A stretch of DNA of 42,616 nucleotides from a virus. The position numbers were made by a program, and so were the translations under genes. Below the pieces are notes generated by a model. That model saw only the letters and a list, made by a program, of their open reading frames with translations. It did not search any database and was not told where the DNA came from. Positions 1,675-35,826 of the stretch are shown here, one piece after another. Where the stretch lies: the IMG/VR virus record IMGVR_UViG_3300045988_017468; one strand, 5' to 3'. Positions within the stretch are counted from its first letter, which is position 1. Each line of letters starts with the position of its first letter.

Positions 1675-2475
1675 TTACGCACCCCTTTCAAACGTGGTCT
1701 GTTCCACATTCTCTTTGTGGTCGATGCTTGGCGTCAGGCCAATGGCCTTGAGCTGCTCATAAATGAACCGCTGGCCCGCTTCCGTCCAAACGGTGGTGTT
1801 TGGCGTGGTGATCTTGCCACTGTTGTGCTCAAACGGACGGCCTTTGCGGTTTTTGGTGTAACCTTTTCCGCTATACTTTGCGTATAATACCCACTGCCCG
1901 TCGCTGTTCTTCCACTGGATTTTCAGCCCGTGCAGGATGCTGTTCAGCTTCTCGCCGCTCATGCCGTAATCCTTTGCAATGCTGGTAGCCGTCCGGCAGT
2001 TATCGCCAATGCAAACGGCCCTGGCATACTCTGCATCTGGCTTCAGGTCTCTGTTCTCAGCCAAAAGCTGTTTGTTTACGGCCTTGAGCTGGTCATTCTG
2101 CCTCTGGGCGATAAGCACCGCACGGCGCATGACCGCCTCCGGGCTGTTCCACTGGGCTTCAATGGCCAGAAAATATTGCCGTGCCTGCTTGCCACGCTCG
2201 TTGCGCTGGATCATGCACAGCTCTTTGGCCATTGGGATGGTGAGTTGGTGATCGTCAATCGTGCGTTCCACCTCTCGGTTGCCTTCCGACTGAACTCGTA
2301 CATTTTTGTACGGGTTGAAATCTTCACCCTCGATAAATCCATATTCGACCATGCGCGGGAACCAAATGCGATAAGGTGTGTTGACTTCTAAGAAGTCGTG
2401 CAGCTCCCGGCCGCTCACCGTGGGGCGCTCCGGGTTATCGTAGCTAATGGGGATGAGATTGTTTAATTCGCTCAT
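1675..2475 (-). CDS. Phage antirepressor (AntA/AntB-like N-terminal domain plus KilAC-like C-terminal domain)
   Basis: Start moved to Met64 (MSELNNLIPISYD...) with an AAGGAGG SD. Motifs TVSGRELHDFLEVNTPYRIWFPRMVEYGFIEGEDF and AKDYGMSGEKLNSILHGLKIQW are typical of this family. Confidence 0.85.
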   Translation of the reverse strand: MSELNNLIPISYDNPERPTVSGRELHDFLEVNTPYRIWFPRMVEYGFIEGEDFNPYKNVRVQSEGNREVERTIDDHQLTIPMAKELCMIQRNERGKQARQYFLAIEAQWNSPEAVMRRAVLIAQRQNDQLKAVNKQLLAENRDLKPDAEYARAVCIGDNCRTATSIAKDYGMSGEKLNSILHGLKIQWKNSDGQWVLYAKYSGKGYTKNRKGRPFEHNSGKITTPNTTVWTEAGQRFIYEQLKAIGLTPSIDHKENVEQTTFERGA

Positions 2476-2675
2476 GCCGTTTTGTCCTCCTTTTCCTTGA
2501 TGATCTCGCTGACGGCAGCTTCCATCTTTTCCCGAATGCCGGGAGGGTTGCGCTTGCTGTTCAAAATCAGTGAACAGTAGCTTCTCGAAAATCCAAGATG
2601 CTTTGCTACGTCGTCTACTGTAATCTGGTTGTTGTGCATCCGGCCCACTAAACGGCCTGTCCATTTTTCAGGCAC
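2472..2675 (-). CDS. Cro-like small HTH regulator, first gene of the early minus-strand operon
   Basis: GTG start 7 nt after GAAGGAGG. HTH segment ITVDDVAKHLGFSRSYCSLILNSKR. Stop overlaps the antirepressor start (ATGA). Confidence 0.6.
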   Translation of the reverse strand: MPEKWTGRLVGRMHNNQITVDDVAKHLGFSRSYCSLILNSKRNPPGIREKMEAAVSEIIKEKEDKTA

Positions 2676-2711
2676 TTTCACACCTCCTTCAAAATGTAAG
2701 TTGAAACAAAA

Positions 2712-2740
2712 TTGACAACGGCGCACCGATTTGCTATACT
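2712..2740 (+). promoter_or_regulatory. Sigma70-type promoter TTGACA-17-TATACT firing rightward, away from the cro start
   Basis: Hexamers at 2712..2717 and 2735..2740 with an exact 17-bp spacer. Confidence 0.6.
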
Positions 2741-2747
2741 GTTCAAG

Positions 2748-3053
2748 GCTCCTAGTTAAACTGATTCAAAAGGAAGGTGATTTCATTGACCCAACTTTTG
2801 AGCCAGCCAGTTCCAGACACGAGCAAGTGCGTGAAGCGCTAGGGCTTACAAGGCGGTGCCGACCCGCCAAAGGAAGCGGCGTACCCATAGCCCTGCAAGT
2901 TGTTTTTGCAGCCCGGGCGTTACTTTTGCGCCGCGCATGGCGCAAAAGACGTGCAAACGCGCATGTTTGCATTACCGCCGGGGTGCAAGTGCGTTCTGGT
3001 GACAAATCGGTGAAAAGTCTGTCTGTGAAACAACCGCAGGCAGATTTTTTCTT
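2748..3053 (+). ncRNA. Candidate structured RNA of about 300 nt, antisense to the leader of the cro transcript
   Basis: Bounded by the 2712 promoter and the 3019..3053 terminator. No credible ORF. Perfect hairpins at 2852-2868, 2893-2911, 2923-2948 and 2952-2971; the last two share the loop GCGCAT. Confidence 0.35.
3019..3053 (+). terminator. Intrinsic terminator
   Basis: 7-bp stem CTGTCTG/CAGGCAG (one G-U pair), 11-nt loop, then ATTTTTTCTT. Confidence 0.6.
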
Positions 3054-3073
3054 ATCGCCGTGTCAAATACCAG

Positions 3074-3102
3074 TTGAAAAAGTTTACAAAGTGTGTTACT
3101 AT
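3074..3102 (+). promoter_or_regulatory. Promoter TTGAAA-17-TACTAT with an extended -10 (TGt), candidate repressor-gene promoter
   Basis: Hexamers at 3074..3079 and 3097..3102; TG at 3094..3095. Confidence 0.55.
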
Positions 3103-3103
3103 G

Positions 3104-3115
3104 TAGTTGCAGACA
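3104..3115. promoter_or_regulatory. Candidate operator half TAGTTGNNNACA, repeated at 3208..3219
   Basis: TAGTTGCAGACA lies just downstream of the 3097 -10 box. TAGTTGTCAACA overlaps the -35 of the minus promoter. Only two copies exist. Confidence 0.25.
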
Positions 3116-3188
3116 CATAGTAAAAAAGCTTAGGCGGTACGACCCGCTGGGGCTTTGTGTTTTGTTAACTATTTCAACTGACAAGAGC

Positions 3189-3217
3189 ATTATACAGCTA
3201 GCAGAGTTAGTTGTCAA
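3189..3217 (-). promoter_or_regulatory. Consensus promoter TTGACA-17-TATAAT firing leftward toward cro (candidate early lytic promoter)
   Basis: Reverse complement of 3212..3217 is TTGACA and of 3189..3194 is TATAAT, with an exact 17-bp spacer. Confidence 0.65.
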
Positions 3218-3274
3218 CATTTTGTACTAACTTTACTAACTTTTGTATGGATGCACGAAAAAGGAGCTGCTTTT

Positions 3275-3625
3275 ATGAGCACTTTTTACGACAACTATAT
3301 AAAGCTGTGTGCTGTTCACGACAAATCCCCAACTGCGGTATCAAAAGAAATTGGCCTTTCTAACGCAGCTGCCAGTGGCTGGAAAAACGGCAAAAAGCCT
3401 TCTGCGGTTACAAAGCAAAAGCTTGCCGACTACTTTGGTGTCACGGTCGAAGAGTTGACCGGCGAAGAGCAAAAAGAAAAGCCCAACGCCTTAGATGGCA
3501 TTGAGCTTGAAAAATTGTCACCAGCCCGCCGTGCGCTGCTGGAAGCGCTGGAGGGCATGGATGACGAAAACATTATGAAAATTGTTCGGATTGCTCAGGC
3601 AGTTAAAAAGGAGCTTCCAGAGTGA
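3275..3625 (+). CDS. XRE/CI-like HTH repressor without a peptidase domain
   Basis: Start moved to Met9 (MSTFYDNYIKLC...) 8 nt after AAGGAG. HTH segment PTAVSKEIGLSNAAASGWKNGKKP. Divergent from the cro-like gene. Confidence 0.8.
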   Translation: MSTFYDNYIKLCAVHDKSPTAVSKEIGLSNAAASGWKNGKKPSAVTKQKLADYFGVTVEELTGEEQKEKPNALDGIELEKLSPARRALLEALEGMDDENIMKIVRIAQAVKKELPE

Positions 3626-5556: not shown

Positions 5557-5585
5557 ATTCTACCATGCGCCGTTGGAAAATAAAA
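5557..5585 (-). promoter_or_regulatory. Candidate extended -10 promoter (TGgTAGAAT) for the 5510->5184 operon
   Basis: Reverse complement of 5557..5565 is TGGTAGAAT. The -35 (TTTTAT) is poor. Confidence 0.35.
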
Positions 5586-5603
5586 TACGGATAAAATTTG
5601 TCG

Positions 5604-5636
5604 AATGGCGCAGATTTTTTCTGCGCCATTTTTTGT
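5604..5636 (+). terminator. Strong intrinsic terminator
   Basis: Perfect 10-bp stem AATGGCGCAG/CTGCGCCATT, 7-nt loop, then a T-run. Confidence 0.75.
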
Positions 5637-5668
5637 TAAAAATACGCCGATATTATGGGGGTGAAAGT

Positions 5669-6256
5669 ATGAGTTATTTTACGGCAAGCCAAATCGGAAA
5701 AGCGCTTGCAAAAGCACGGGTGTCTGCCCGTCTGAGTCAAGCGGAGATCGCAAGGCGCATCGAAAAAGGAGAGCGCACCGTGCAGAGCTGGGAAAAAGGA
5801 TGTACCAGCCCGGACAGTGACGAGATCATGGATTGGTGCACGGCGTGTGGCGTGTCTCCCATATCTGTGTTCATGGAGATGACCCACCCGGATCTGTACA
5901 AAGTGCCGGATGACGGCAAGGCCGACGATGAGCTAAACGCGGAGTTGCGCCGTCTCGTGGTAAATCTGCCGCCGCTGACGAAAAGGCTACTCCTCTTCAT
6001 ACTGAAAGGCAGTCACGGCAGCAGCCCGCCTGCTGTCATATCGGAGATAGCTGCAAACTTGCACTGCCCGCTCAACAACAGGACAAGCGTGTGCGGGACC
6101 ATCATAGACCAGTATACCTATGCGCAGATCGCGGGCCTTGACCCATGCCCGGACGCTCCGCAGCCTCCCATTGACGACCTGAAGATCAACTACAAGGCCG
6201 GAAGAGCCGCTGCTGAAAATGGCGCATTCGGATATATCGGGCAGAAAAATGAGTAA
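5669..6256 (+). CDS. XRE-family HTH protein with a C-terminal domain of about 130 aa and unknown function
   Basis: Start at Met33 (MSYFTASQIG...) behind GGGGGTGA. HTH segment LSQAEIARRIEKGERTVQSWEKG. Lies directly upstream of the integrase gene. Confidence 0.7.
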   Translation: MSYFTASQIGKALAKARVSARLSQAEIARRIEKGERTVQSWEKGCTSPDSDEIMDWCTACGVSPISVFMEMTHPDLYKVPDDGKADDELNAELRRLVVNLPPLTKRLLLFILKGSHGSSPPAVISEIAANLHCPLNNRTSVCGTIIDQYTYAQIAGLDPCPDAPQPPIDDLKINYKAGRAAAENGAFGYIGQKNE

Positions 6257-6259
6257 GCC

Positions 6260-6550
6260 ATGAAATGCGTGAGACCATGCTGCAGGAAAGAGATCCCGGA
6301 TGGTGCTTCTTTTTGTCCGTGGTGCGGGAAGAAACAGCCGGAAGCCGCCCCGCAGCAAAGAAAAAAGCGCCGCCGCCCAAAGGGCAGCGGCACAGTGTAC
6401 CCTTGTGTATGGAGGTGTGGATTTTATGAAAAAACGGGTCAACACGGCATTTTGGGTGGAAAAGGAAAAGCGCTGGTGCATCGCGGTTCAGAAGAACGGC
6501 ACCCGCAAGCGGTTTTACAGCAGCACGCCGGGCCGCACCGGCCAGCGTGA
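6260..6550 (+). CDS. Zinc-ribbon ORF overlapping the integrase start; possibly a remnant or recoded N-terminus
   Basis: MKCVRPCCRKEIPDGASFCPWCGKK...RRRPKGSGTVY. The part beyond residue ~47 looks non-protein-like and overlaps the int frame. No SD. Confidence 0.25.
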   Translation: MKCVRPCCRKEIPDGASFCPWCGKKQPEAAPQQRKKRRRPKGSGTVYPCVWRCGFYEKTGQHGILGGKGKALVHRGSEERHPQAVLQQHAGPHRPA

Positions 6551-7562
6551 AGCAAACGCAAAAGCGGATGCATGGCTTGATGATAGCATCCGTGACGGGA
6601 AAAAGAAGGTCAGCGTCCTTTATTCAGAGTGGGTGGAAGAGCTGAAGCTGACTTGCGGGACGTCCTATGTGACACAATGCCAGCGTTACGGAGACTGCTA
6701 CATCCTGCCGACCTGTGGGAACATCCGCATTGACGAGTTAACCGAGGGCGATCTTCAAAAGGCAATTGACGTTTCGTTCCGGAAGCGCTCACAGAAAAAG
6801 AACCAGCGCAAGCCCATCTCAAACCAGCCGTTGAGCCGAAAGACGCTTATGACGATCCGGGCTGCGGAAACCGCCTTTGTCAAGTGGTGCCGAAGAAACA
6901 AGTACACGGCGCTCCACCCCGACCTGTCTATCCCGAAGAATGCCAGGATGGGGAAACGCACGATCTTGCAGCCCACCGCCTTGAAGACCCTGTTCAGCGT
7001 AGACACCCGCACCTACTATGGAAAGCCGGTATTTGATGAATATATCTACGCCTACCGCTTTGCAGTTGCGACCGGCCTACGCCCCGGGGAGCTGATTGGT
7101 CTCTGGTATGGTGACATCAAGGGGAACACGGTCAATCTTCGGCGCAGCATCAACGTGCACCGGGAGCAGACCACCGGAAAGAATGAAAACGCCATCCGCT
7201 CTTTTGACATGGGAAAGGAAGCACGGGATGCCTATGAGTCGCAGGTACAGCTTCTAAAGGCTCAAGGCATACTGCTAAACTACAATACCTCGCTGTTTCA
7301 GATCCCGTCAGAGCATACGCTCTATCGCCGCTGGGAATCGTATCAGGAAGCAAACGGGCTTGAGCCGAAAGTCTCACTTTACGAGCTTCGGCACACTTTT
7401 GTCAGCGTTGAATCAAGCGTCCTGACTGACAGCCAGCTGAAGATGCTTGTAGGTCATAGCAAGAACATGGACACTGCCGGAGTGTATCGGCACGAGCTTG
7501 ACGGTCAGAGGGAAGACCTTGCTGCCGCTACCACCGAGGCATTCAAAAAGGCACAGGCCTGA
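6426..7562 (+). CDS. int: Tyrosine recombinase (phage integrase)
   Basis: Start at Met43 (MKKRVNTAFW...) 8 nt after GGAGGTG. Catalytic-region motifs GLRPGEL, LYELRHTF and VGHSKNMDTAGVYRH. Confidence 0.93.
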   Translation: MKKRVNTAFWVEKEKRWCIAVQKNGTRKRFYSSTPGRTGQREANAKADAWLDDSIRDGKKKVSVLYSEWVEELKLTCGTSYVTQCQRYGDCYILPTCGNIRIDELTEGDLQKAIDVSFRKRSQKKNQRKPISNQPLSRKTLMTIRAAETAFVKWCRRNKYTALHPDLSIPKNARMGKRTILQPTALKTLFSVDTRTYYGKPVFDEYIYAYRFAVATGLRPGELIGLWYGDIKGNTVNLRRSINVHREQTTGKNENAIRSFDMGKEARDAYESQVQLLKAQGILLNYNTSLFQIPSEHTLYRRWESYQEANGLEPKVSLYELRHTFVSVESSVLTDSQLKMLVGHSKNMDTAGVYRHELDGQREDLAAATTEAFKKAQA

Positions 7563-7916: not shown

Positions 7917-8252
7917 TCACTCAGACAAAGAGACAATCTTCCGCATTACTAGCTCATACTCTTTCGGGTACACCATCTTTATTGCTTTCATGTGCTCGTC
8001 AAGCACCTGCATCAGACCGCCAAATGGCACAGAGCTGGCAGCCGCCACAAAGTCGCTTTGCGGTTCCGCTGCCGTGGAGTACGCCGCCCGGTAATCCGTG
8101 GGTGGAAATGCCTGGGTCTGCGTTTCAGGTGTGTGCGCTTCTTCCAGCTCGTCCCGCACAGTGCAGAGGGCGGCAAGCTTTTCCACGCTCTGCCAGTCCG
8201 TCGAACCGCATTTCAGCTTGTGAATGTGGGTGTTGATCTCGTCAATGTCCAT
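7917..8252 (-). CDS. Hypothetical acidic protein (accessory cluster gene 8)
   Basis: ORF track, 111 aa; AAAGGGGG SD. Confidence 0.55.
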   Translation of the reverse strand: MDIDEINTHIHKLKCGSTDWQSVEKLAALCTVRDELEEAHTPETQTQAFPPTDYRAAYSTAAEPQSDFVAAASSVPFGGLMQVLDEHMKAIKMVYPKEYELVMRKIVSLSE

Positions 8253-8269
8253 GCCTGCCGCCCCCTTTC

Positions 8270-8671
8270 TTATGCGTTGCGCAAGATGTCAGCGGCCCGC
8301 TTGTAGGCGTCACGCTCTGCACCGGTGGCCTCCTGCATCATGTCCTCGATGTCAGAGATCATACGCTCACGGCCATCCGTGCGGGAGTAGTGCCCGCGCA
8401 CATAGTGACGGCCTCGGTTGGCATAGCTGTTGCCCCGGTTGTAACCGTTTCCGGCATCATGGCCGAAAGTCCCGCGCATGTCAGCTTCCCACTCGCCCGC
8501 ACGGCTGTACTCGCCGCCCTCGCAGTAGTCCTCGATGCGGTGGATGTCCAGAATGATGTCCACGATCTCGCCGATCATCTCAACATCACCCGGGGATCGG
8601 TTCTTTTTGTCGGTCAGCTCCATGAGCTCTTCGCACATCTCATCCTTCAGATGATTCAGTTTATCCAGCAT
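8270..8671 (-). CDS. Hypothetical protein with a central Arg/Gly/Tyr/Asn-rich low-complexity segment (cluster gene 7)
   Basis: ORF track, 133 aa; AAAGGAGA SD. Segment GNGYNRGNSYANRGRHYVRGHYSR lies between acidic helices. Confidence 0.6.
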   Translation of the reverse strand: MLDKLNHLKDEMCEELMELTDKKNRSPGDVEMIGEIVDIILDIHRIEDYCEGGEYSRAGEWEADMRGTFGHDAGNGYNRGNSYANRGRHYVRGHYSRTDGRERMISDIEDMMQEATGAERDAYKRAADILRNA

Positions 8672-8687
8672 GACTTTATCTCCTTTC

Positions 8688-9110
8688 TTATGCTACCCGC
8701 TCAACAATCAAATTGCCGTTTGCAATGCTGACTGCCTGCGTACTGGTGTTCTTAACCGCCACGGTCACGCAGCAGCCGCGCGGCACCTCGATGAACGCGG
8801 CCACGAAAACGTTGAAGAAATTTTCGACTGCCGCCGGGGTGACAATGGCTGTCGCACTGGTCAGCGACTCACCGCCGACAGCCAGCGCCACGGAAATGGG
8901 TCCAACAGTGCCGCCGGTGGGAATGGCGATATTGCCGCCAAAGCTTACCTTGAAGCGCGCTTTGCATTGATTGGTCAGACCCCGCAGGGTCACAAGGCCG
9001 CTGCCCTCACGGTGCATGATGCAGGCAGGGGCTTTCACCGCGGTCTCAGTCAGGGGAAGGTTTTCACCCGCCGCCACGATGACGGTGTTGGAGTTGCTAA
9101 ATTCAGCCAT
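8688..9110 (-). CDS. Beta-rich protein resembling the BclA C-terminal (C1q/TNF-like) domain, without a collagen stalk (cluster gene 6)
   Basis: Start at Met13 (MAEFSNSNTV...) 9 nt after AAGGAGG. Alternating beta pattern, a CC pair, and an ending ...SIANGNLIVERVA that recalls the BclA ending ...SASIIIEKVA. Confidence 0.5.
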   Translation of the reverse strand: MAEFSNSNTVIVAAGENLPLTETAVKAPACIMHREGSGLVTLRGLTNQCKARFKVSFGGNIAIPTGGTVGPISVALAVGGESLTSATAIVTPAAVENFFNVFVAAFIEVPRGCCVTVAVKNTSTQAVSIANGNLIVERVA

Positions 9111-9324
9111 TATCCGAAACCTCCTTTTCTGCACAAACAGGCGCATTTACCGCATAAACGGTTTTTAAGATATCCATCCAAGAATTGGATGGATCTGCTT
9201 TTTCCGTATCAAGCAGGGTTTTCAAAATGAAAACATAAGTGTTCAATTCCATCATGCTCATTTTGTTCTTATCCATGCTGTACAGATAATCTACAAACTG
9301 CTGTTTCAGCTCTGCTACGGTCAT
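9103..9324 (-). CDS. Hypothetical helical protein (cluster gene 5)
   Basis: ORF track, 73 aa; AAAGGAG SD. Stop overlaps the next start (ATGGCTGA). Confidence 0.55.
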   Translation of the reverse strand: MTVAELKQQFVDYLYSMDKNKMSMMELNTYVFILKTLLDTEKADPSNSWMDILKTVYAVNAPVCAEKEVSDNG

Positions 9325-9342
9325 TCAAATACTCCTTTCATA

Positions 9343-9371
9343 GAAAAACGCCGGGACTTTTGCCCCGGCGC
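9343..9371 (-). terminator. Intrinsic terminator inside the accessory cluster
   Basis: Stem CGCCGGG/CCCGGCG, followed on the minus strand by TTTTTCT. Confidence 0.6.
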
Positions 9372-9437
9372 TCTGGTTTGCAAAATCAGCTCAGGGGCTG
9401 AACATTTTCCATTTTGGAAAAAGTTGCCGTGATTCGG

Positions 9438-10277
9438 TTATGCGCAGTTGCCGCAGCCGGTCCCACAGCCATAGTAAATGGCGTTGGGGTTGGGCACCTG
9501 ATAGGCAGGCACGGGAGCTTTCTGCTGCAGAGTCCCGATGATCTGGTTGGTCTGCGCGTTCATCGCGGTGGTCAGGAACGCGCTCTGGCGATCCTGAGAA
9601 GCAGCCCGGCGCAGCTCGTTGTTCTCGCTCTGCAGGGTGGCGATCTTATCGTTGGTCAGGAAGTCGAGCACCGCGCGGGTGTTGCTGTTCTGATTCTCGA
9701 TGATGTCCCGGGTGTTGTTGTTCATGGCGTTCTGCGTTGCGCAGAAGCCCTGCTGCATCTGGTTCCGGGTGTCGCACTCCTGAGTGGCCAGATTGTAGTT
9801 AACGCCCTGGATCGCGGTCTGGGTCTTGCAGCAGCAGTCTGCCAGCTGTGTAGCCAGAGCATTCTGACCCTGCATCAGCGCAACGTTGGTGCCGTTGAAG
9901 CCCTGCTGCATGGCGTTGGTGACACCGTTCAGGCCCTGCTGCACGCCGTTGAAGCCCTGAAGCATCCCGGTGTTCATGGCATAGAAGCCATCACACAGGC
10001 CGCTTTCAAGCCCGTTCAGCTTGTTCATGACGCTCTGGTTGTCGAAGCCACGCTGCAGGTCTGCCTGTGTGACAGCGCTGGTCATATAAGGCGAAGCGCC
10101 GCCCATGCCGCCGCCCCAGCCAAAGCCGCCCATGCCGCCCCAGCCGAACATGCCGAAGATCAGAAAGAGGACGATCCAGCCCATCCAGTCGCCGCCCCAG
10201 CCATTGAGGCCGTTGCTGTAGCCGTTGGCGGGCTGTACCGGCATAGTCAGAACCGTGCTATCAGAAGAAAGAGACAT
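9438..10277 (-). CDS. Membrane-anchored Gly/Trp-, Gln/Asn- and Cys-rich protein (cluster gene 4)
   Basis: ORF track, 279 aa; AAAGGAG SD. TM helix flanked by GWGG repeats (GWGGDWMGWIVLFLIFGMFGWGGMGGFGWGGGMGG). QQGFNG-type repeats, a CCC motif and the C-terminus YYGCGTGCGNCA. Confidence 0.7.
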   Translation of the reverse strand: MSLSSDSTVLTMPVQPANGYSNGLNGWGGDWMGWIVLFLIFGMFGWGGMGGFGWGGGMGGASPYMTSAVTQADLQRGFDNQSVMNKLNGLESGLCDGFYAMNTGMLQGFNGVQQGLNGVTNAMQQGFNGTNVALMQGQNALATQLADCCCKTQTAIQGVNYNLATQECDTRNQMQQGFCATQNAMNNNTRDIIENQNSNTRAVLDFLTNDKIATLQSENNELRRAASQDRQSAFLTTAMNAQTNQIIGTLQQKAPVPAYQVPNPNAIYYGCGTGCGNCA

Positions 10278-10310
10278 AGTTTTACTCCTTTACGTTAGAT
10301 TTTGAAATTT

Positions 10311-10337
10311 ATTCTAAATGCGGCCGCATTTTAGAAT
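10311..10337. repeat. Near-perfect 27-bp palindrome centred on GCGGCCGC
   Basis: ATTCTAAATGCGG/CCGCATTTTAGAAT with one bulged T. Lies between cluster genes 3 and 4 and overlaps the stop at 10331. Confidence 0.6.
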
Positions 10338-10555
10338 CCAAACATATTTTTCATGCCGTTGAGCATCGGCGCGATCTGCTGCGCCCGCTGCTGAATGGCG
10401 TTGAGCTGCTGCTGTGAAAGCTGGCCGGAGGTGAGCATCTGGTTTATCATCTCCTGCGGGTTCTTTCCCTGCATCTGGCCCATAAACTGCTGGAACTGCC
10501 CGCCAATAGGGTTCTGAGCCTGTCGGCCCATCGAATTAAACAAGCTGCTGCCCAT
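10331..10555 (-). CDS. Small Gln-rich protein (cluster gene 3)
   Basis: ORF track, 74 aa; AAGGAGGG SD. About a quarter of the residues are Gln. Confidence 0.6.
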   Translation of the reverse strand: MGSSLFNSMGRQAQNPIGGQFQQFMGQMQGKNPQEMINQMLTSGQLSQQQLNAIQQRAQQIAPMLNGMKNMFGF

Positions 10556-10558
10556 CGT

Positions 10559-11002
10559 TTAGCCCTCCTTTTCCGGCTCTGGTGCTTCTTGCTTCTCCAA
10601 CGCCGCCAGCTTTGCCGCCAACTCGTCGAACTCCTTGCGGGTGACATACTCCCCGCCTGCGGCTTGCGTGGCTGCAATCGACGCTTTGGGGACGCTGGTG
10701 CGTTCCTTGTAGTCGTAGATTCGGAGCGGAAACGGCCTGCCGTCCTGCCCAACTTCTTTGATGTAAAAGGTATCGGAATCAGCATCCAGTAAAAGCACCC
10801 GGCTCCCGTTGGCGACCAGATAGCCCCGGGCCGCTGCTTCGCCTTGCACCCAGATAAAGCCGCTGTCAGTCGGTGCGGCCTGCCCCTGCATTGTCGGCAT
10901 CATGACGGGCTGGGGTTGGTACTGTGCTGCCCTGAGCTGTTCAAGCTGCCCCTGCGGCTGTTGCGGGTAAAACACTTGCGGGTATCCGTTATAGATCGGC
11001 AT
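10559..11002 (-). CDS. Protein with a Pro/Gln/Tyr-rich N-terminus, beta-rich core and Glu-rich tail (cluster gene 2)
   Basis: Start at Met16 (MPIYNGYPQVFYPQQPQ...) 6 nt after AAGGAGG. Core motif FIWVQGEAAARGYLVANGSRVLLLDADSDTFYIKEV. Confidence 0.6.
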   Translation of the reverse strand: MPIYNGYPQVFYPQQPQGQLEQLRAAQYQPQPVMMPTMQGQAAPTDSGFIWVQGEAAARGYLVANGSRVLLLDADSDTFYIKEVGQDGRPFPLRIYDYKERTSVPKASIAATQAAGGEYVTRKEFDELAAKLAALEKQEAPEPEKEG

Positions 11003-11381
11003 CGTTTTCCTCCTTGTACCAGTAGTAGATCGGGCATTCTGCGCCACTGTCCCAGCTGTCCCACCACGCGCCGTCGATGACGGTCAGAACGTGGCCGGAG
11101 CAGCCCAGCACATACACGCCGTGCGGGTACTCCCGGGCAAAATCTGCCACGGTGTAACAGGTGGTGCAGTCCGCCTCCACCATGCCGCGCTTGTAACCCT
11201 GCTTTTGGAGGTATGCGCCCCATGTGCGGTTGGCGCTGGGCATATCGCCGACGATAAAGCCAGTAAGCGCAAGCCCAAGGTAAGCTTTCTCCCAGTCTTG
11301 GCCCGTTGCGGCTGCCACGGCCCGCACTACGCAGTCCCCTACGCTGCTCCCGCGCGGGTTCGGGTTAAACTTGTGCCACAT
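10989..11381 (-). CDS. Putative papain-fold Cys/His peptidase-like protein (cluster gene 1)
   Basis: Start at Met17 (MWHKFNPNPRGSSVGDCVVRA...) 6 nt after AGGGAGGGG. Candidate catalytic Cys in GDC and His in CSGHVLTVIDG. The function is inferred. Confidence 0.45.
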   Translation of the reverse strand: MWHKFNPNPRGSSVGDCVVRAVAAATGQDWEKAYLGLALTGFIVGDMPSANRTWGAYLQKQGYKRGMVEADCTTCYTVADFAREYPHGVYVLGCSGHVLTVIDGAWWDSWDSGAECPIYYWYKEENDADL

Positions 11382-11451
11382 GGTGCGCCCCTCCCTTTGC
11401 GACCATAGTACCTTTTCTGCTGAACCCATGCGTTAAACGAACGTACAACGA

Positions 11452-11498
11452 AGGACAAAAAGAAAAGCGCCCACACGGCACAGGACTGTGTAGGCGCT
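11452..11498 (-). terminator. Minus-strand intrinsic terminator upstream of the accessory cluster (insulator-like)
   Basis: Stem AGCGCC-ACAC / GTGT-GGCGCT, followed on the minus strand by TTTTCTTTTTG. Confidence 0.55.
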
Positions 11499-11540
11499 CA
11501 ATCATTTGCACTCAATGAGTACAATATTTTCAAAAAGTGC

Positions 11541-11569
11541 TTGACGTTTACACTCATTGGGTGTATAAT
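11541..11569 (+). promoter_or_regulatory. Near-consensus promoter TTGACG-17-TATAAT of the plus-strand moron cassette
   Basis: Hexamers at 11541..11546 and 11564..11569 with an exact 17-bp spacer. Confidence 0.7.
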
Positions 11570-11614
11570 AAAGATAGTGAAAGATACAAACACACAACAT
11601 GGAGGTGCAAAATT

Positions 11615-11794
11615 ATGAGAAACGCTATTGAAATCGCCGCTGATATCCGCAATACTGCAGCGTGGGATCTCGAGCTGTGCGAAGAACTGTGCGAGGCGGC
11701 CGGAATGGAAGACGAGTGGAACACGGCAGACGGCGATAACTTTGAGGCTGTCGTTGAAGCCGCCGCTGAAAAACTGGGCGTTGAGATCTACTAA
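11615..11794 (+). CDS. Small highly acidic protein (59 aa; 16 Asp/Glu against 3 Arg/Lys)
   Basis: Start at Met27 (MRNAIEIAADIRNTAAWDLELCEELCEAAGMEDEWNTADGDNFEAVVEAAAEKLGVEIY) 9 nt after GGAGG. Confidence 0.65.
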   Translation: MRNAIEIAADIRNTAAWDLELCEELCEAAGMEDEWNTADGDNFEAVVEAAAEKLGVEIY

Positions 11795-11795
11795 A

Positions 11796-11842
11796 TAAAA
11801 AATCCCCCGCCCGATGCTTGCCACACCGAACGGGGGATTTTG
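11796..11842. terminator. Bidirectional intrinsic terminator
   Basis: Stem ATCCCCCG/CGGGGGAT with A-run and T-run flanks and a 21-nt loop. Confidence 0.6.
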
Positions 11843-11848
11843 TGAAAG

Positions 11849-11867
11849 ACACCTCACACGGAGGTGT
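11849..11867. promoter_or_regulatory. Inverted repeat ACACCTC-N5-GAGGTGT, candidate operator for the downstream HTH protein
   Basis: Perfect 7-bp arms located 38 bp upstream of the 11905 start. Confidence 0.35.
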
Positions 11868-11904
11868 GCATTTATCCTATCACACGAAAGGAAGGAAGTC
11901 AATC

Positions 11905-12222
11905 ATGTATACCAAAGCAGAGCTTTTTTCAATGGCCGCAGAGCAGCCGAAGGAAATCTTTGTCAACAACATCACTCTGAGCGTACCAGACGATGCTGAC
12001 AGCTGCCTTAATCTGGATGCTGAGAAGGAAAAGCTGTCCTCCATCTGGGATCTGGCGCACTTGTCTATGCGGGAGCTGGTCTCACGCACTGGCCTGTCTC
12101 AGACCGCTTTTGCAAAGCGGACGGGTATCCCGCTTCGCACGGTGCAGAACTGGTGTGTCGGCACCCGCGACTGCCCGGCATACGTCCGCTTCCTGCTGGC
12201 CGAGCACTATGGGCTGATCTGA
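11905..12222 (+). CDS. HTH DNA-binding protein (XRE-like, C-terminal HTH)
   Basis: Start at Met30 (MYTKAELF...) behind AAGGAAGGAAG. HTH segment MRELVSRTGLSQTAFAKRTGIPLRTVQNWCVG. Confidence 0.7.
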   Translation: MYTKAELFSMAAEQPKEIFVNNITLSVPDDADSCLNLDAEKEKLSSIWDLAHLSMRELVSRTGLSQTAFAKRTGIPLRTVQNWCVGTRDCPAYVRFLLAEHYGLI

Positions 12223-12235
12223 GGGGGATTCCGGT

Positions 12236-13186
12236 ATGGCATCAAAAGACTTGACGGGTCATACTTTTGGGAGCTGGATCGTGATAGGTGCATCCGAAAA
12301 GAGCGGCTATGTAAAATGCCGCTGCAAGTGCGGCACAGAAAGAGATGTCCTTCGAGAATCCCTGACCCGAGGGGCAAGCAAGTCCTGTGGGTGCGTTCAT
12401 ACCAGGAGCGAGGCCCAGCTCAAGATGGACGAGCGGAGAAAAAAAGAGGGAGACCTTACTGGAAAGCGGTTTGGGCGTTGGACTGTCTTGCATCGTGCGG
12501 AAAAAGATGGGTATTTTACATGCCAGTGTGAGTGTGGCACTATAAAAGATGTGTATCGGCATAGCCTTATGTCCGGAATGAGCACAGGCTGTCAGCATTG
12601 CGCTTTCTCGCATAGCGATGCAATGAAGAGCGCAGCAGCCCAAAAATCCGCCAAAGCAAAAAAATCCGCTATCGAAAAGTACGAAGGGAAGACTGTGAGC
12701 GGCTGGAAGATCATCGAAATCCTACCCCCTCGAAAGCCAGACGTATCCATGTGGTGCAAAGCAGTCTGCCCGCAGTGCGGAAAAATCGTTGAAGTCAGAC
12801 TTTCAAACATAACACGCACTAACCCTATACTTCGGTGCTCCGACTGTGCCCGTGACATGAAAGACAAGGTCGATGTCATCCACAGCGTTACCCAGGTGGA
12901 TGGCTCTTCCCTCTCCTCTGTGAAATCGCGGATGGGCGGAAAGGTCAACCGGAACTCCAAGACCGGAGTAAACGGCGTTGTAAAAAGGCCGAACGGGCGG
13001 TACTTTGCCTATATCAACTTCAAAAGGAAACAAATTTATCTCGGCCTGTACGAAAGCCTTGACGATGCGATTGCCGCCCGGAAAAAGGCGGAAGCGGCGA
13101 TTTATGGCGAGTATCTTGACCAGCATGAAGGTTGGGAAGAAGAGCTTGCAAGCCGTCTCAAAGAACTCAAAAAAGAGAAAAAATAG
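12236..13186 (+). CDS. Protein with three Cys4 zinc-ribbon-like modules and a C-terminal AP2-type DNA-binding domain
   Basis: Three repeats of L(T)G..FG.W.V........Y..C.C.CG...V....L..G...(S/T)CG(C). C-terminal GVNGVVKRPNGRYFAYINFKRKQIYLGLYESLDDAIAARKKAE is AP2-like. No HNH motif seen. Confidence 0.7.
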   Translation: MASKDLTGHTFGSWIVIGASEKSGYVKCRCKCGTERDVLRESLTRGASKSCGCVHTRSEAQLKMDERRKKEGDLTGKRFGRWTVLHRAEKDGYFTCQCECGTIKDVYRHSLMSGMSTGCQHCAFSHSDAMKSAAAQKSAKAKKSAIEKYEGKTVSGWKIIEILPPRKPDVSMWCKAVCPQCGKIVEVRLSNITRTNPILRCSDCARDMKDKVDVIHSVTQVDGSSLSSVKSRMGGKVNRNSKTGVNGVVKRPNGRYFAYINFKRKQIYLGLYESLDDAIAARKKAEAAIYGEYLDQHEGWEEELASRLKELKKEKK

Positions 13187-13227
13187 AAAAACCCCCGATG
13201 CTCCAAACGGAACACCGGGGGTTTGCT
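13187..13227. terminator. Bidirectional intrinsic terminator between the convergent cassette and the late operon
   Basis: Stem ACCCCCG/CGGGGGT with A-run and T-run flanks and an 18-nt loop. Confidence 0.65.
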
Positions 13228-13458
13228 TTACTCAAAAACTTTTGCAATGCTTTTCAGCCGATAGCCTATTGCCGTCCGGCTGTAATGCGTCTGTGCTGCA
13301 ATGTCCGGCAATGGAAGCCGCTCAACGTACCGCAAAAGAGCTATCTTCCGGTCTACCCTCCCAAGCGGTGCGGTTTTGATGGCGGCGGTCATCTGTTGTC
13401 GGTCAAGTCCTTGCAGGCACAGTGGCAGCACCACACGAGCCGCCGCCACAGGCAGCAC
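13228..13458 (-). CDS. Sigma-70 region-4-like HTH ORF, possibly the 3' part of a frameshifted gene
   Basis: RVDRKIALLRYVERLPLPDIAAQTHYSRTAIGYRLKSIAKVF. No SD in front of any candidate start. Confidence 0.4.
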   Translation of the reverse strand: MLPVAAARVVLPLCLQGLDRQQMTAAIKTAPLGRVDRKIALLRYVERLPLPDIAAQTHYSRTAIGYRLKSIAKVFE

Positions 13459-13934: not shown

Positions 13935-14307
13935 GATTGGTAACTCCTTTCAAAAGATAGTTGTCGATGTCGGTGCGGCTCTTCTGCATCCCCTCGCGAT
14001 TGTTGCCGGACAGCTGCGCATCCAGAAGGTTGCGCACCCCGTCGAGGGTCAGACGGCTCACCTCGTCAATTTCTTCAAAGCGGCGCAGATCTCGGGCAAG
14101 GGCCTGCGTGTGTTGGAGCTGGCCCTGCTCTAAGGTGCCGATGCGCTTGTCCATCTCATCCAGCCGCTTGTTCTGCACGTTGTCCGGTTCCTGCGCCTTT
14201 TTGATGTACTTGTGAATGATTTCCAGCACCTTGTCAATGGTGATGGCTGCAGCACACAGGCTACCCAGGATGCCAAGCACCCACAGCAAAGCTTCTTTTT
14301 CGGTCAT
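13918..14307 (-). CDS. Membrane-anchored coiled-coil protein of the lysis cassette (holin or holin-associated)
   Basis: ORF track, 129 aa. N-terminal TM LLWVLGILGSLCAAAITI. ATGA overlap with the lysin stop. Confidence 0.55.
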   Translation of the reverse strand: MTEKEALLWVLGILGSLCAAAITIDKVLEIIHKYIKKAQEPDNVQNKRLDEMDKRIGTLEQGQLQHTQALARDLRRFEEIDEVSRLTLDGVRNLLDAQLSGNNREGMQKSRTDIDNYLLKGVTNHGSDS

Positions 14308-15101
14308 TTGTCCTCCCGGAGACGGGTCAGACCCTTCTTGCGGATGATACGGGAGTAGTTGATCTCTGTCACGTTGAGGTCAACATTGCCGGAGATGCCA
14401 GGCACGCTGCCTTTGCTGGTGTGCTGGTGGGCATTGTACTTGAAGTCCACCTTCGGGGTCTTGCCGGTGTAGTCAGCAAGCCACACGTCCCACCGGGAGG
14501 ATAGCCTGGCCATATCCAGTTCGTATTTGTAGCCGGTATAGGTGTAGAGCTGGGCGTAAAAGCCCATCTTTTCCACCTGTTCCAGCGCGTAGGCGGTGAG
14601 GTTGGTGAGGTCGAGGGTGCTCATGGGTTTGAGTTTGTTTTCCTCCACGTCCACCGCGAGGGGCATGGTAAGCTTCTTGCCGTAGACCGCCTGCCGCACA
14701 AGGGCAAGCTCTGCATCGGCCATCGCCTCGCTGGTGGCGTAGGTGTAGTAGTAGACACCCACGTCCAGCCCAGCCGCTTTGGCGTTGCGGTAGTTCGCTT
14801 CAAAGGTGGGGTCGATGTACAGGCCGTCTGCTCGCTTGGAGAGCTTGTGGTTAGTGCTTACGGTCTTGAGCATGGCTCCCTTGTAGCCCGCTGCTGCCAC
14901 CTGTGCCCAGTCGATGGTGCCCTGATACCGGCTCACGTCAATGTACCGGTAGGGCGGTTCACCTGCCCACCCGGTCACGGTGTCCACAGTGGGCACGTCC
15001 GGTGCAGGGGCAGGCTCTTCCTTGTCGGCGCTGTCACCGGCAGCGTGGGAGAGCGCAGAAAAGATATCCCGCAGGAAGTCAAGCATCACTTTCCACCTCA
15101 T
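14304..15101 (-). CDS. Endolysin, glycoside hydrolase family 25 muramidase
   Basis: Signature YIDVSRYQGTIDWAQVAAAGYKGAMLK. The start is uncertain; ATGs at 15110, 15101 and 15086 are all possible. Confidence 0.9.
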   Translation of the reverse strand: MRWKVMLDFLRDIFSALSHAAGDSADKEEPAPAPDVPTVDTVTGWAGEPPYRYIDVSRYQGTIDWAQVAAAGYKGAMLKTVSTNHKLSKRADGLYIDPTFEANYRNAKAAGLDVGVYYYTYATSEAMADAELALVRQAVYGKKLTMPLAVDVEENKLKPMSTLDLTNLTAYALEQVEKMGFYAQLYTYTGYKYELDMARLSSRWDVWLADYTGKTPKVDFKYNAHQHTSKGSVPGISGNVDLNVTEINYSRIIRKKGLTRLREDK

Positions 15102-15222
15102 AAAATCCATCCTCCGTCAGCTTTTTCATCACGGCATCCTTGTACCGGTCAGGCACGTTGTCGATGGTAAAAGCGCCGTCAAAGCGGTGCAGCTTGATTT
15201 GGGTCACATAGAACAAAACCAT
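15079..15222 (-). CDS. Small ORF (47 aa) upstream of the endolysin gene
   Basis: Not in the ORF track. ATG 5 nt after AAGGAGG, translation MVLFYVTQIKLHRFDGAFTIDNVPDRYKDAVMKKLTEDGFYEVESDA. Confidence 0.45.
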   Translation of the reverse strand: MVLFYVTQIKLHRFDGAFTIDNVPDRYKDAVMKKLTEDGFYEVESDA

Positions 15223-20225: not shown

Positions 20226-22838
20226 TTAATTTCCCCTTTCTGCCAGCGTGGCCAGATGGCCCAGCTGTGCATCAATAGAAGGTGCCAGTGCGCCCACCAG
20301 CGTGCCGTCGTCCAGCTTAATGACAGTGTTTGCCGTCTGGGGAAGGTACTGCTGCACCACGTTGTACAGCGCGTCCACGGACTGCTGCATTTTCTGCTGG
20401 TAGGACGAAAGCCGCCCGTTTGCCGGGCTTTCGCCGAACGCATAGCCGTCGGTGCGGAAATCGTACCCGGCAAAGCTGCGCTGGCTGCCGTACCAGTAGG
20501 CGTCCTGAATGTCCTTGTAGGAAAGCGTCGTGCTCTTGCTGTCAGTGCTTTTCTTTTCGCCGTTTTTACTGCCAAGCCATGCGGCCAGACCGATACCGCC
20601 CGCCACAGCAGCCACGCCCAGGATGGCAGCCAGCACAGGGTTGGATGCCACAAGCGAGACGATATTGCCCAGACTGCCCATGATAGAGGTGGCCATGCTG
20701 GACACCCCGCTGGCGACGTTGGCCAGCTGGGCACCTGCCCCACCCGATGCGCTTAAGCTGGACAGGATGGAGCCAAAGCTTTGCACCGCTGTCCCCGCTT
20801 CTGTTGCGCTGGCAGCAATGCCGTCCGTAAAGAGCGATTTGATGGTAGCGAAGGCCGCTTTTACGCCGCCCCCACTGTACGCGTCATTGATGACACTCAG
20901 CGCATCCGCCGCCCACTTGGAGATAAGCTCCCGCTGATCCTGCGATACCTCGCCCCAGATGAGATTTGCCACGTCTGTAGCCAACCCGGCCCAGTTGCGG
21001 TTTTTCAGGTCGGTGAACGCGTTTTGCAGGCGGCCAAAGATGCCGTTCGACCACTGCTTCTGCGCATTGCTGAGGTTCTGGTCAATGCGGCTTTGCAGCT
21101 CCGTCACGGACAAAACCACATCGTCACAGCTCTTTTGCGTGGTCGTGGTCACTTTTCCGGCCGCATCGGTCACTTTCTTTGTGACCGATTTGATAGTCTT
21201 CTCCGTGCCGTCCACCACTTCTTTCCAAGAGTCCGTGATGGTCTCCACGGTCTCCTTTGTGGTGCCCTTGAGCTTTTTGGTGGTGCCGTCGTAGACGTTG
21301 TATGTATTGTCGGCAGTCTCCACCACGCGCTGGATGTTACCCACGATGTTTCCCGTTCCGGCAAGGATCTGCTTCGACGTTTCGGTGACGGTATCTGCCA
21401 GCTTTTTGGTGTCAGCAGCCGCTTTGGCGGTAGATTTTTTGCTTTTTCCGCCGCCTGTGCCGCCCGAGGCAGTGATGCTGCTTCCGCCGTTTCCGGCGGC
21501 AGCGGCTGCCTTTGCCTGCCGTTCCGTCCAGCTTTCGTTGTAGATGCCTTTTCCGTTTTTAGCGTCCTGCCGTCGGCGGTCGTAGTTGCTCTGGCTGTTT
21601 TTGTCAGAGCGGTACTGCTTGTATCCTTCGTCACTGTTCTCGTACCCCGCGTAAGCATTCTTCCCAAGGGCTTTGTTGAGCTTGAAGCTCAATTTATCGA
21701 GAACGCCGATTCCGGCAGAGCCAAGCTCTCCAAATTTCTTGATGACGGAGTTGATGGGGTTGTTCAGTTCCAGAATGGCCTCGCCGAGCCCCTTCCAGCC
21801 GTCCGTCTTGTAAGCTTCGATGGCCGCCACGGTCATATCGTTGAGGTTGGAGATTACCACGCCGATTCCGCTGCTGAGGTCGCCCGTCATGAGCCCGGCC
21901 AGCTGGCTCACGTTGTCTTTCAGGGTGGAAACGCGGCCATTCATGGTCTGGCTCTGGGTGTCCATGGCGTTGTAGTAGCGCCCGCCCTCCTCGCTGGCAG
22001 CAATAAGGGCATTAGACAGCAGGTCATAGCTGATGGTCATGTTCTGGACTTCCTGCACCGTTTTCCCGGTGTAGTCAGCCAGCACCTGATAAACGTTGAT
22101 TCCGGCATAGGCAAACTGCTTGATGTCGATTGCGGACGCTTTGCCCACATTGGCGATCTGCTGCAGATTGGCTGCCATGCGGGAAAGCTCCGCGTTGCCT
22201 CCGCCCGTGGCGGAAACAGCATCGCCAAGCGCCATGATGACCTTGCGGGAGTAGCTCGCGTTTTCACCGGCGCTGATGAGCAGTTGGTTTGCCTGCGTCA
22301 GCGAATCCACGCTGAACGGAGTGCGGGCTGCGTCCTCTTGAATGGCCGCCATGGCCTCATTGGCCGCCTGTGCATCGCCCAACATATTGGTTAGACCCAC
22401 GCGGTAACTTTCGATTTGGGCGTTGTACTCGATGCCCATAGACACAAACTGCTTTGCACCACTGAGGGCCGCGGTGGAAAGCGTGGAGATGGCAGAAGCC
22501 AGAAGCTGCGATTTTGTCAGCGCCGCCGTCAGCCCACTTCCCGTACTGCTGGCCGATTTGCCAAAGGAGTCCATGCCGTTGTTTGCGGATTTCAGGGCGG
22601 AGGCGGTTGTTTTGAGCTGTGCCTCAGCTGCTGCAAGCTGATTTTTCAGCTCTTTGGTCTCAGCCGAGGTCTTGCCCGTCTTGGCGGCAGATTCGTTATA
22701 CTGCTTTGTCAGTTCCAGAACGCTTTTTGCGGCCTTGCTGTACTCGCTGGAAAGCGCCGTCACGGTCTTTTTAGTCTCGCTCTGGACGTTGTTGATGCCC
22801 CGCTCATACGCGGACGTGTCCAGCCCAAGAGTGGCCAT
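20226..22838 (-). CDS. Tape measure protein
   Basis: About 870 aa, helical and Ala/Gly-rich, positioned after the G/T chaperones. I prefer the ATG at 22838 over the TTG at 22841. Confidence 0.9.
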   Translation of the reverse strand: MATLGLDTSAYERGINNVQSETKKTVTALSSEYSKAAKSVLELTKQYNESAAKTGKTSAETKELKNQLAAAEAQLKTTASALKSANNGMDSFGKSASSTGSGLTAALTKSQLLASAISTLSTAALSGAKQFVSMGIEYNAQIESYRVGLTNMLGDAQAANEAMAAIQEDAARTPFSVDSLTQANQLLISAGENASYSRKVIMALGDAVSATGGGNAELSRMAANLQQIANVGKASAIDIKQFAYAGINVYQVLADYTGKTVQEVQNMTISYDLLSNALIAASEEGGRYYNAMDTQSQTMNGRVSTLKDNVSQLAGLMTGDLSSGIGVVISNLNDMTVAAIEAYKTDGWKGLGEAILELNNPINSVIKKFGELGSAGIGVLDKLSFKLNKALGKNAYAGYENSDEGYKQYRSDKNSQSNYDRRRQDAKNGKGIYNESWTERQAKAAAAAGNGGSSITASGGTGGGKSKKSTAKAAADTKKLADTVTETSKQILAGTGNIVGNIQRVVETADNTYNVYDGTTKKLKGTTKETVETITDSWKEVVDGTEKTIKSVTKKVTDAAGKVTTTTQKSCDDVVLSVTELQSRIDQNLSNAQKQWSNGIFGRLQNAFTDLKNRNWAGLATDVANLIWGEVSQDQRELISKWAADALSVINDAYSGGGVKAAFATIKSLFTDGIAASATEAGTAVQSFGSILSSLSASGGAGAQLANVASGVSSMATSIMGSLGNIVSLVASNPVLAAILGVAAVAGGIGLAAWLGSKNGEKKSTDSKSTTLSYKDIQDAYWYGSQRSFAGYDFRTDGYAFGESPANGRLSSYQQKMQQSVDALYNVVQQYLPQTANTVIKLDDGTLVGALAPSIDAQLGHLATLAERGN

Positions 22839-22852
22839 CAATTCAAAAAGTT

Positions 22853-35608: not shown

Positions 35609-35826
35609 AAGATATCTCTCCCTTCCTGCATCCGCTTGAAGGTTTCCTCGTAGGAGTAGACCTTCGCCGGGACGAACTGCATTGTGTTTGCATCCGCCAG
35701 CATCACAACGTCCTCATGCTTTTCGATCAGCTGGCGAAGCTCTTTCATGTAGGCCACCAGCCCGCAGGCATCCGAATACGAAACGCCGCGGCTCATCAGC
35801 TGCTTGATAAACTGTTTTTGTGTCAT
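35602..35826 (-). CDS. Hypothetical protein
   Basis: ORF track, 74 aa; ATGA overlap with the upstream stop. Confidence 0.55.
   Translation of the reverse strand: MTQKQFIKQLMSRGVSYSDACGLVAYMKELRQLIEKHEDVVMLADANTMQFVPAKVYSYEETFKRMQEGRDIFC

Follow-up and report, generated by a model that had tools for sequence, protein, structure and literature searches.

What is encoded by an isolated block of genes that faces against both of its neighbours in a phage genome? In the 42,616-nucleotide (nt) viral sequence IMGVR_UViG_3300045988_017468 from IMG/VR (this whole stretch is henceforth termed the window), the sole plus-strand block between the minus-strand lysis genes and seven further minus-strand genes is a cassette of three genes. 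It encodes a hyper-acidic protein of 59 amino acids (aa), a 105-aa helix-turn-helix (HTH) protein and a 316-aa protein built from zinc modules and an AP2 domain. The initial annotation, made from the sequence alone, had compared the cassette to operons of anti-CRISPR (acr) and anti-CRISPR-associated (aca) genes. All features that it listed (promoter, acidic gene, hairpins, inverted repeat, HTH gene and third gene) were found to be present, and the cassette is, as was held there, an autonomous unit with its own strong promoter. From comparison with related loci and known systems, we conclude that the cassette is probably an acr-aca-type anti-defence operon of a temperate Faecalibacterium-type siphophage, with an autorepressed strong promoter, variable cargo and a CasPR-like protein. 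Loci of this kind are already known; the cassette adds one from a host group that has not been studied, and contributes a new family of regulators as well as several new candidates for inhibitors.

Judged by Pfam and PHROG matches of its genes, the window is the genome of a temperate siphophage. Weak DNA matches and one genome-bin locus point to Faecalibacterium or related Clostridia as the host. Faecalibacterium is a dominant, health-associated gut commensal, the phage-host conflicts of which are, to our knowledge, almost unstudied; a literature search for anti-CRISPRs in Faecalibacterium phages returned nothing specific. The earlier description of the cassette as a lone plus-strand unit in the minus-strand late region holds for its orientation, yet it lies downstream of the lysis genes and not within the structural operon. 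This lysis-to-integrase site is the classical accessory (moron) region.

Promoter, candidate operators and the proposed HTH regulator

For comparison, we used 80 viral-contig loci and two relevant genome-bin loci that encode the HTH protein, together with 13 loci that encode the acidic protein. The HTH gene holds a constant position in the collected loci, on the plus strand and converging on the lysis genes, and the cassette promoter is conserved in about 50 related loci, whichever first gene comes after it. This near-consensus promoter ahead of a strongly acidic small protein had been noted from the start and was confirmed, as was the charge of the protein (Table 1). Promoter sites with at least 11 of 12 matches occur four times in the whole window, compared with 0.2 expected from Markov resamples. 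Two operator-like palindromes, termed O1 and O2, accompany it. They are the sole sites in the window that match the palindrome with at most one mismatch, and O2 is conserved in related loci, where it switches type jointly with O1. Promoters of acr-aca operons have consensus boxes and one inverted repeat in the core promoter, often with a second one (PMC9410906); the cassette shows a consensus-like promoter of this type, with O1 placed in the spacer between the two boxes. A separate sigma-70 promoter for the HTH gene was seen neither by eye in 11842-11904 nor on the plus strand in the promoter scan.

Operator type and regulator type vary together. Three palindrome types pair with three types of HTH recognition helix in 50 of the 50 loci in which operator and helix were both readable, with zero exceptions: the operator CACTCAwTGGGTG occurs with the helix ..RTVQNWC..TRD (N-type; VQNW..TRD), CACGCAATGCGTG with ..VQDWC.EKRA (D-type), and CGCTCAATGAGCG with ..VQGWCLGER. 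(G-type). The comparison of the window with its relative L006 shows the same connection within one pair of loci. Identity is 98-100% over the acidic gene, the hairpin, the leader and the part of the HTH gene that encodes the N-terminal half, and drops to 73-83% across the operators and 81% across the DNA-binding half of the HTH gene, i.e., two divergent patches are separated by near-identical DNA. Physical linkage is unlikely to be the sole cause of the pairing because the genes flanking the HTH gene occur with more than one operator/HTH type; this applies both to the first gene (59-aa, 70-aa or other) and to the third (316 aa, 239 aa, none, or a methyltransferase). Owing to the operator-helix co-variation and the paired divergent patches, we infer that the HTH protein would bind O1 and O2 and repress its own promoter, in agreement with the autoregulatory role first suggested for it. 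Its Pfam matches, HTH_3 and HTH_31, fall under the curated cut-offs, and within the acr-aca-type reading the protein most likely represents a new family of Aca-like regulators. The three matched specificity classes additionally offer a natural experiment on the co-evolution of repressors and operators.

Two other candidates for this regulatory circuit were rejected. The palindrome does not recur around the lysogeny switch region at ~2700-3250, and for this reason a role of the phage CI or Cro protein at the cassette promoter was dismissed. The second candidate was the operator originally proposed, the perfect inverted repeat ACACCTC-N5-GAGGTGT, which lies in the HTH-gene leader. We rejected it because the repeat does not track the HTH type, being the same in N-type and D-type loci, and has decayed in eight relatives (L047, L051, L062 and L069 types); the palindromes that do co-vary are located instead inside and upstream of the promoter. 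The repeat is also not significant when considered alone, since about 2.6 repeats like it are expected by chance in the window for a single fixed spacing (4^-7 x 42.6 kb). Two variants of it (L041, L048) retain pairing by compensatory changes, and the leader as a whole resembles the 5' untranslated region of the acidic gene. The repeat may be an RNA hairpin or a relic.

Variants of the leader and of the regulator itself occur among the collected loci. In the L047, L051, L062 and L069 leaders (corresponding to about 11861-11904 of the window), an ATG located 9 nt after a Shine-Dalgarno (SD)-like GGAGG opens a short open reading frame (ORF) that runs, in a different frame, across the HTH start; the equivalent position in the window reads ATC. 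This short ORF could have a regulatory function as an upstream ORF, or be a relic. In L066-L075 and L080 (e.g., L067:3725-4321), the cassette HTH is joined to an extra N-terminal Xre-type HTH, giving proteins of 198-203 aa in total, and the usual promoter was not found there by the promoter pattern.

The CapR-AP2 gene and the variable upstream cargo

The third protein had at first been taken for a generic DNA binder. By homology, it is instead the strongest anti-CRISPR candidate in the cassette, because it is homologous to a CasPRIB1-type Listeria protein that occupies the same position in the same layout. CasPRs consist of CapR zinc modules and an AP2 domain and are abundant in acr loci of Bacillota prophages; they are experimentally demonstrated anti-CRISPRs that bind inside cas genes, block transcription and act in lysogeny (Sanderson et al., bioRxiv 10.64898/2026.02.23.707548). 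By tblastn, a protein of 166 aa was found in Listeria phage LP-LmcIH1-9; this protein possesses C33, C35, C37, C56, C58, R138 and R149, i.e., the residues named for CasPRIB1. With this identical numbering of key residues, the Listeria protein stood in for CasPRIB1 (QDA75636.1) as the comparison sequence. Profile-profile alignment of the 316-aa family with it (hhalign) gave a probability of 99.7% and an E-value of 1.8e-26 over residues 5-164, AP2 region included, and BLASTP of the 316-aa protein against the Listeria CapR module gave 45% identity (E 9e-12).

The internal architecture of the 316-aa protein agrees with this assignment. Repeat 1 carries C28, C30, C32, C51 and C53 in the CxCxC-19-CxC spacing of CasPRIB1, repeats 2 and 3 are variants, and the AP2 domain follows C-terminal to the CapR modules. 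An AlphaFold model was confident (predicted local distance difference test, pLDDT, 91.2), and its top Foldseek match in the PDB was the AP2 domain of TEM1 (probability 1.0, 44 columns, root-mean-square deviation 0.8 Å). Against Pfam, the protein itself yielded no match, neither to PF00847 (AP2) at E<=0.01, which matches 9 of 25 homologues, nor to HNH or any other nuclease domain. In the 316-aa protein, the third CapR module, the linker and AP2 thus appear to form a complete CasPR-type unit, with two additional CapR modules in front of it. The protein shares with the CasPR family the combination of CxCxC...CxC CapR modules, helical linkers and AP2, and it too is encoded in a Bacillota prophage beside other candidate inhibitors. 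Family members with several CapR modules exist, two each in CasPRIB2 and CasPRIIA1; the 316-aa protein has three, and the spacing of the third (CxxxCxxC...CxxC) differs. If the assignment is true, the locus extends CasPR-type transcriptional silencing to Clostridia and to a three-CapR architecture.

The resemblance to Listeria includes the whole locus. In LP-LmcIH1-9 (OR234010), the integrase gene and small minus-strand genes are followed by a plus-strand block with a near-consensus promoter, comprising a 133-aa gene, an HTH gene and the CapR-AP2 gene, and this block converges on the endolysin and holin genes. The product of its middle gene (143 aa) resembles the HTH domain of AcrIIA1 (PDB 5Y69, E 5e-4). 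Listeria prophage acr loci with AcrIIA1 and CasPRIB1 (phiEGDe/A118-type) likewise contain a plus-strand small gene, an HTH gene and a CapR-AP2 gene. The cassette therefore shares with a locus holding an AcrIIA1-like HTH gene and a CasPRIB1-numbered last gene its gene order, its near-consensus promoter, its place on the integrase side of a temperate siphophage and its convergence on endolysin and holin genes, and its third gene is homologous across the whole Listeria protein; the acr/aca-like layout seen in the initial annotation is supported accordingly. Differences exist as well. The HTH proteins are unrelated in sequence, and the HTH is C-terminal in the cassette protein, whereas it is N-terminal in AcrIIA1. 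There are three CapR modules in the cassette protein and one in the Listeria protein, the first genes are unrelated, a hairpin separates first gene and HTH gene in the cassette, and the host is a Clostridia gut commensal instead of Listeria.

In acr-aca operons more generally (Aca1-Aca14, e.g., acrIF1-aca1 of JBD30; PMC9410906, PMC13551039), a strong consensus promoter with an inverted repeat in its core and a second one nearby precedes variable small genes and a conserved HTH gene, an arrangement that matches the cassette, for which we propose the same autorepression logic. The cassette deviates in that its HTH gene is preceded by a hairpin and followed by a further large gene, and its regulator, 105 aa with an extra N-terminal half, matches no solved Aca.

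In the HTH-encoding relatives, the slot upstream of the HTH gene holds interchangeable small genes, several of them hyper-acidic, as would be expected from the acr/aca-like placement of a small gene at this point that had been pointed out before. At least six unrelated small proteins already occupy it, including proteins of 94-108 aa (25-29 acidic and 7-9 basic residues) and one of 57 aa (17 acidic, 5 basic). In close relatives, the third slot is either empty or occupied by one of three alternatives: a 239-aa version lacking about the length of one module, a multi-zinc-ribbon protein of 203 aa, or a DNA methyltransferase. The promoter-operator-HTH scaffold could be used as bait for new anti-defence candidates in gut viromes. 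In one sister locus (L034:3577-4509), an orphan N6/N4 DNA methyltransferase gene (PF01555, 1e-50) replaces the CapR-AP2 gene right after the HTH gene.

The acidic protein belongs to a widespread domain family without a name in any database. Its 35 close clusters are all metagenomic and likewise unnamed, and a profile search with a threshold of E<=1e-3 recovered 419 clusters of the domain (clustered at 50% identity). Proteins of this family consist of a single copy of the domain or of tandem copies, or carry it at the C-terminus of a longer chain, with DUF3846 and HTH_26 among the partners; two of the fusion proteins were traced to short contigs. The family has kept its acidic character (mean -16.7 per 100 aa), and an alignment of diverse members contains no conserved stretch. 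The model of the 59-aa protein is a confident small four-helix fold (pLDDT 93.9) for which Foldseek returned nothing below E=1 in the PDB and only uncharacterised phage proteins in BFVD; the family profile gave nothing credible against PDB sequences, and tblastn found no match among annotated phages and plasmids, for which masking of low-complexity sequence may be the reason. It had been suggested that the protein might mimic DNA. What speaks for this is its charge; the sequence and the predicted structure matched no solved structure, and no similarity to a known mimic such as Ocr, ArdA, AcrIIA4 or p56 was found. Distant members of the domain were encountered among small accessory or early genes in single-protein scans of a few loci.

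The pattern of the upstream slot fits an interchangeable anti-defence cargo, and by guilt by association the acidic protein is a candidate effector. It is conceivable, although we hold this wider proposal only tentatively, that it is the first recognised member of a large family of small acidic four-helix proteins lacking annotation (the 419 clusters, in Firmicutes phages and mobile elements) that act as portable inhibitors of a host defence or DNA-handling protein, and that the new Aca-like HTH family with its matched operators marks an exchangeable anti-defence site in phages of gut Clostridia. A ~141-144-aa protein (MKK.INGxxYxTxTAxxLG...) is repeatedly found close to the acidic-domain gene although the phage surroundings differ (L001:5364-5798, L052:2470-2904, L101:3132-3557); the one member scanned has a weak C-terminal ribbon-helix-helix match.

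A proposed anti-defence role and its alternatives

As an acr-aca-type operon, the cassette would operate as follows. The near-consensus sigma-70 promoter would fire once the DNA enters the cell and would stay at a low level in lysogens. Transcription would cover the cargo gene and, after partial read-through of the hairpin, the HTH gene and the gene for the CapR(x3)-AP2 protein. The HTH protein, presumably as a dimer, would then bind O1 and O2 and shut the promoter, as Aca proteins and the N-terminal domain of AcrIIA1 do. By homology with CasPRs, the CapR-AP2 protein would bind a specific site in host DNA, most likely inside a cas gene or another defence gene, block transcription of that gene and thereby protect the prophage during lysogeny. 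The acidic protein would be a fast-acting cargo that probably binds a host protein.

Several points weigh against this reading. The anti-defence function proposed for the cassette is drawn from sequence and comparison. The acidic protein lacks a match to any known anti-defence protein of solved structure, to a Pfam, PHROG or NCBIfam family, or to a solved fold, and the breadth of its family, with 419 clusters, tandem copies and fusions, is atypical of a narrow-spectrum Acr. Structures of Aca1, Aca2, Aca10 and AcrIIA1 are available in the PDB; a phmmer search of the HTH protein against all PDB chains returned a single match with an E-value of 0.66 and no solved Aca relative, and BLASTP showed no similarity to the AcrIIA1-like protein of Listeria. 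The co-variation of operator and HTH could in part reflect physical linkage. As a CasPR, the 316-aa protein is a remote homologue: R149 is conserved, R138 of CasPRIB1 is a leucine, and in the pairwise comparison with the Listeria protein the best high-scoring segment pair reached 48.5 bits, with segment pairs covering ~78% of the query. The CasPR set was retrieved by BLASTp to CasPRIB1 at E<=1e-4 in nr with at least 70% query coverage (bioRxiv 10.64898/2026.02.23.707548), a cut-off that a score of 48.5 bits would probably miss at nr scale, the scaling being our own estimate. Finally, homing endonucleases and the repressors with which satellites silence phage genes contain CapR and AP2 modules as well, and the DNA target of the CapR-AP2 protein for that reason need not be a defence gene.

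The last point leads to the alternative that survives best, which we nevertheless regard as rather unlikely: the cassette could be a regulatory or competition module, in which the CapR-AP2 protein represses competing phages, satellites or host genes other than immunity genes and causes superinfection exclusion or lysogenic conversion, the HTH protein still being the autoregulator. CapR domains were first described as phage-gene repressors, the CapR protein of the Vibrio PLE satellite represses phage capsid genes, and the authors of the CasPR study propose that CasPRs could evolve to silence lytic genes of competitors (bioRxiv 10.64898/2026.02.23.707548). The classical moron position with its own promoter would suit such a module, and no defence target is known for the 316-aa protein. 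Nonetheless, its closest full-length homologue of known family function is of the CasPRIB1 type and resides in an acr-type layout, and the orphan DNA methyltransferase and small hyper-acidic proteins that sister loci hold in the same slots are typical anti-defence cargo.

Far less probable is that the third gene is what remains of a homing-endonuclease gene after loss of the HNH domain and, with its neighbours, forms selfish or neutral passenger DNA shuffling between phages. The best PHROG match of the 316-aa protein is phrog_374, annotated as 'HNH endonuclease' (6e-41), the HNH-AP2 homing endonucleases of phrog_374 and phrog_99 share CapR-type and AP2 modules with it, distant homologues carry HNH, HNH_3 or HNH_5, and close relatives either have the gene, in full or shortened form, or have another gene in its place or none at all. 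Yet an HNH domain is found in only 3 of the 25 homologues and no nuclease domain in the protein itself, the structural model is confident across each of the four DNA-binding modules (pLDDT 91), many independent contigs contain the unbroken ORF at 94-99% identity, and the gene sits in a regulated operon with a conserved promoter, unlike a free-standing insertion.

To a model in which the acidic protein is a partner or antagonist of the HTH protein, i.e., an anti-repressor or co-regulator that tunes the cassette instead of an effector against the host, we assign marginally less weight still. The two genes are adjacent, and at least one distant relative (P0042) fuses the acidic domain to an Xre-type HTH_26. 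Conversely, the same HTH types appear with unrelated upstream genes or with none, and the acidic gene exists in early operons of other phages that lack this HTH (L010, L012). A toxin-antitoxin or abortive-infection module with the HTH protein as antitoxin, as hinted at by its weak match to Xre-like antitoxin HTH models (PF20432, E 0.034) and by the common toxin-antitoxin layout of a small protein gene with an HTH gene, is the least credible of these options, given an upstream gene that is interchangeable, strongly acidic and without toxin family match, and cassette proteins that match no toxin model in Pfam or NCBIfam.

Hairpins and neighbouring genes

The positions of the cassette elements and of the main phage genes are listed in Table 1.

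Table 1. Features of the cassette and of the surrounding phage genome, in window coordinates.
Feature	Position	Strand	Remarks
Ant-like gene	1675..2664	minus	
CI-like HTH gene	5573..6256	plus	
Integrase	6300..7562	plus	
Seven genes without known function	7917..11429	minus	end near integrase
Left-border hairpin with T-run (11457-11466)	11467..11500	minus	terminator-like site 11481->11467; longer stem GAGCGCCTACAC/GTGTGGGCGC
Palindrome O2 (operator-like)	11509..11521	plus	CACTCA-A-TGAGTA; upstream; centre 42 bp from O1 centre
Sigma-70-type promoter	11541..11569	plus	TTGACG-17-TATAAT; -35 at 11541-11546, -10 at 11564-11569; 11/12 matches
Palindrome O1 (operator-like)	11551..11563	plus	CACTCATTGGGTG = CACTCA-T-TGGGTG; 13 bp, within -35/-10 spacer; candidate HTH site
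SD of acidic gene	11601..11607	plus	GGAGGTG, 7 nt ahead of ATG 11615
Acidic-protein gene	11615..11794	plus	ATG 11615; 59 aa, 16 D/E, 3 K/R; variable cargo slot
Internal GC hairpin	11797..11841	.	19-bp stem; A-run and T-run flanks
Inverted repeat	11849..11867	plus	perfect; leader of HTH gene; right arm is SD-like GGAGGTG
HTH gene	11905..12222	plus	105 aa; N-terminal half without assignment; Xre-type HTH ~residues 55-100 (nt 12067-12204)
Third gene	12236..13186	plus	316 aa; CasPR-like
CapR-type zinc modules 1-3 of third gene	~12248-12394, 12452-12601, 12686-12847	plus	
AP2 domain of third gene	~12941-13126	plus	C-terminal
Second hairpin, same type as internal	13187..13224	.	shared with converging minus-strand lysis-side genes
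GH25 endolysin	14304..15110	minus	holin-like genes also minus
Tape-measure gene	20226..22841	minus	
Large terminase	30315..31598	minus	
Portal, head and tail genes		minus	

The hairpins at the two ends do bracket the unit, as stated in the first description, which had regarded them as bidirectional terminators insulating both sides. In the scan, however, the flanking and internal hairpins score as terminators on the minus strand only, where the T-runs are longer, so that any insulation would mainly concern minus-strand transcription. The left-border hairpin lies just upstream of the next minus-strand gene (10989..11429). The internal hairpin is probably leaky for plus-strand transcripts because some relatives, the L001-type loci, have no hairpin there and proceed from the first gene to the following genes.

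No other hairpin of this type occurs in the window besides the internal one and the one after the third gene, and these two are alike in sequence (CCCCCG..CGATGCT...ACACCG..GGGGG). Hairpins after differing cargo genes in relatives (L041, L047, L048, L055, L076) have a common apical motif that ends in GAACACC. Besides acting as terminators, the cassette hairpins may be recombination joints for cassette exchange.

On the left side, the true start of gene 10989..11429 is probably ATG 11381, with the SD sequence AGGGAGGGG, since relatives are called at 125-130 aa. On the right side, a minus-strand gene (13228..13458) converges on the cassette and shares the hairpin at its end; it encodes a 76-aa protein with a weak sigma-70 region-4-like HTH (PF08281, E 1e-3), and almost every sister locus has it at the end of its lysis genes.

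Of the other strong promoter sites, two near-consensus promoters, at 2712-2740 (+) and 3217-3189 (-), are convergent, ~500 bp apart and next to HTH genes (2731..3625), and the one on the minus strand is a perfect TTGACA-17-TATAAT. By its position, this pair suggests the lysis-lysogeny switch. The fourth site with at least 11 of 12 matches is located at 35421 (+), and a PAPS-reductase-like gene (35823..36983, minus; phrog_424, 8e-28) is found in the early region of the phage.

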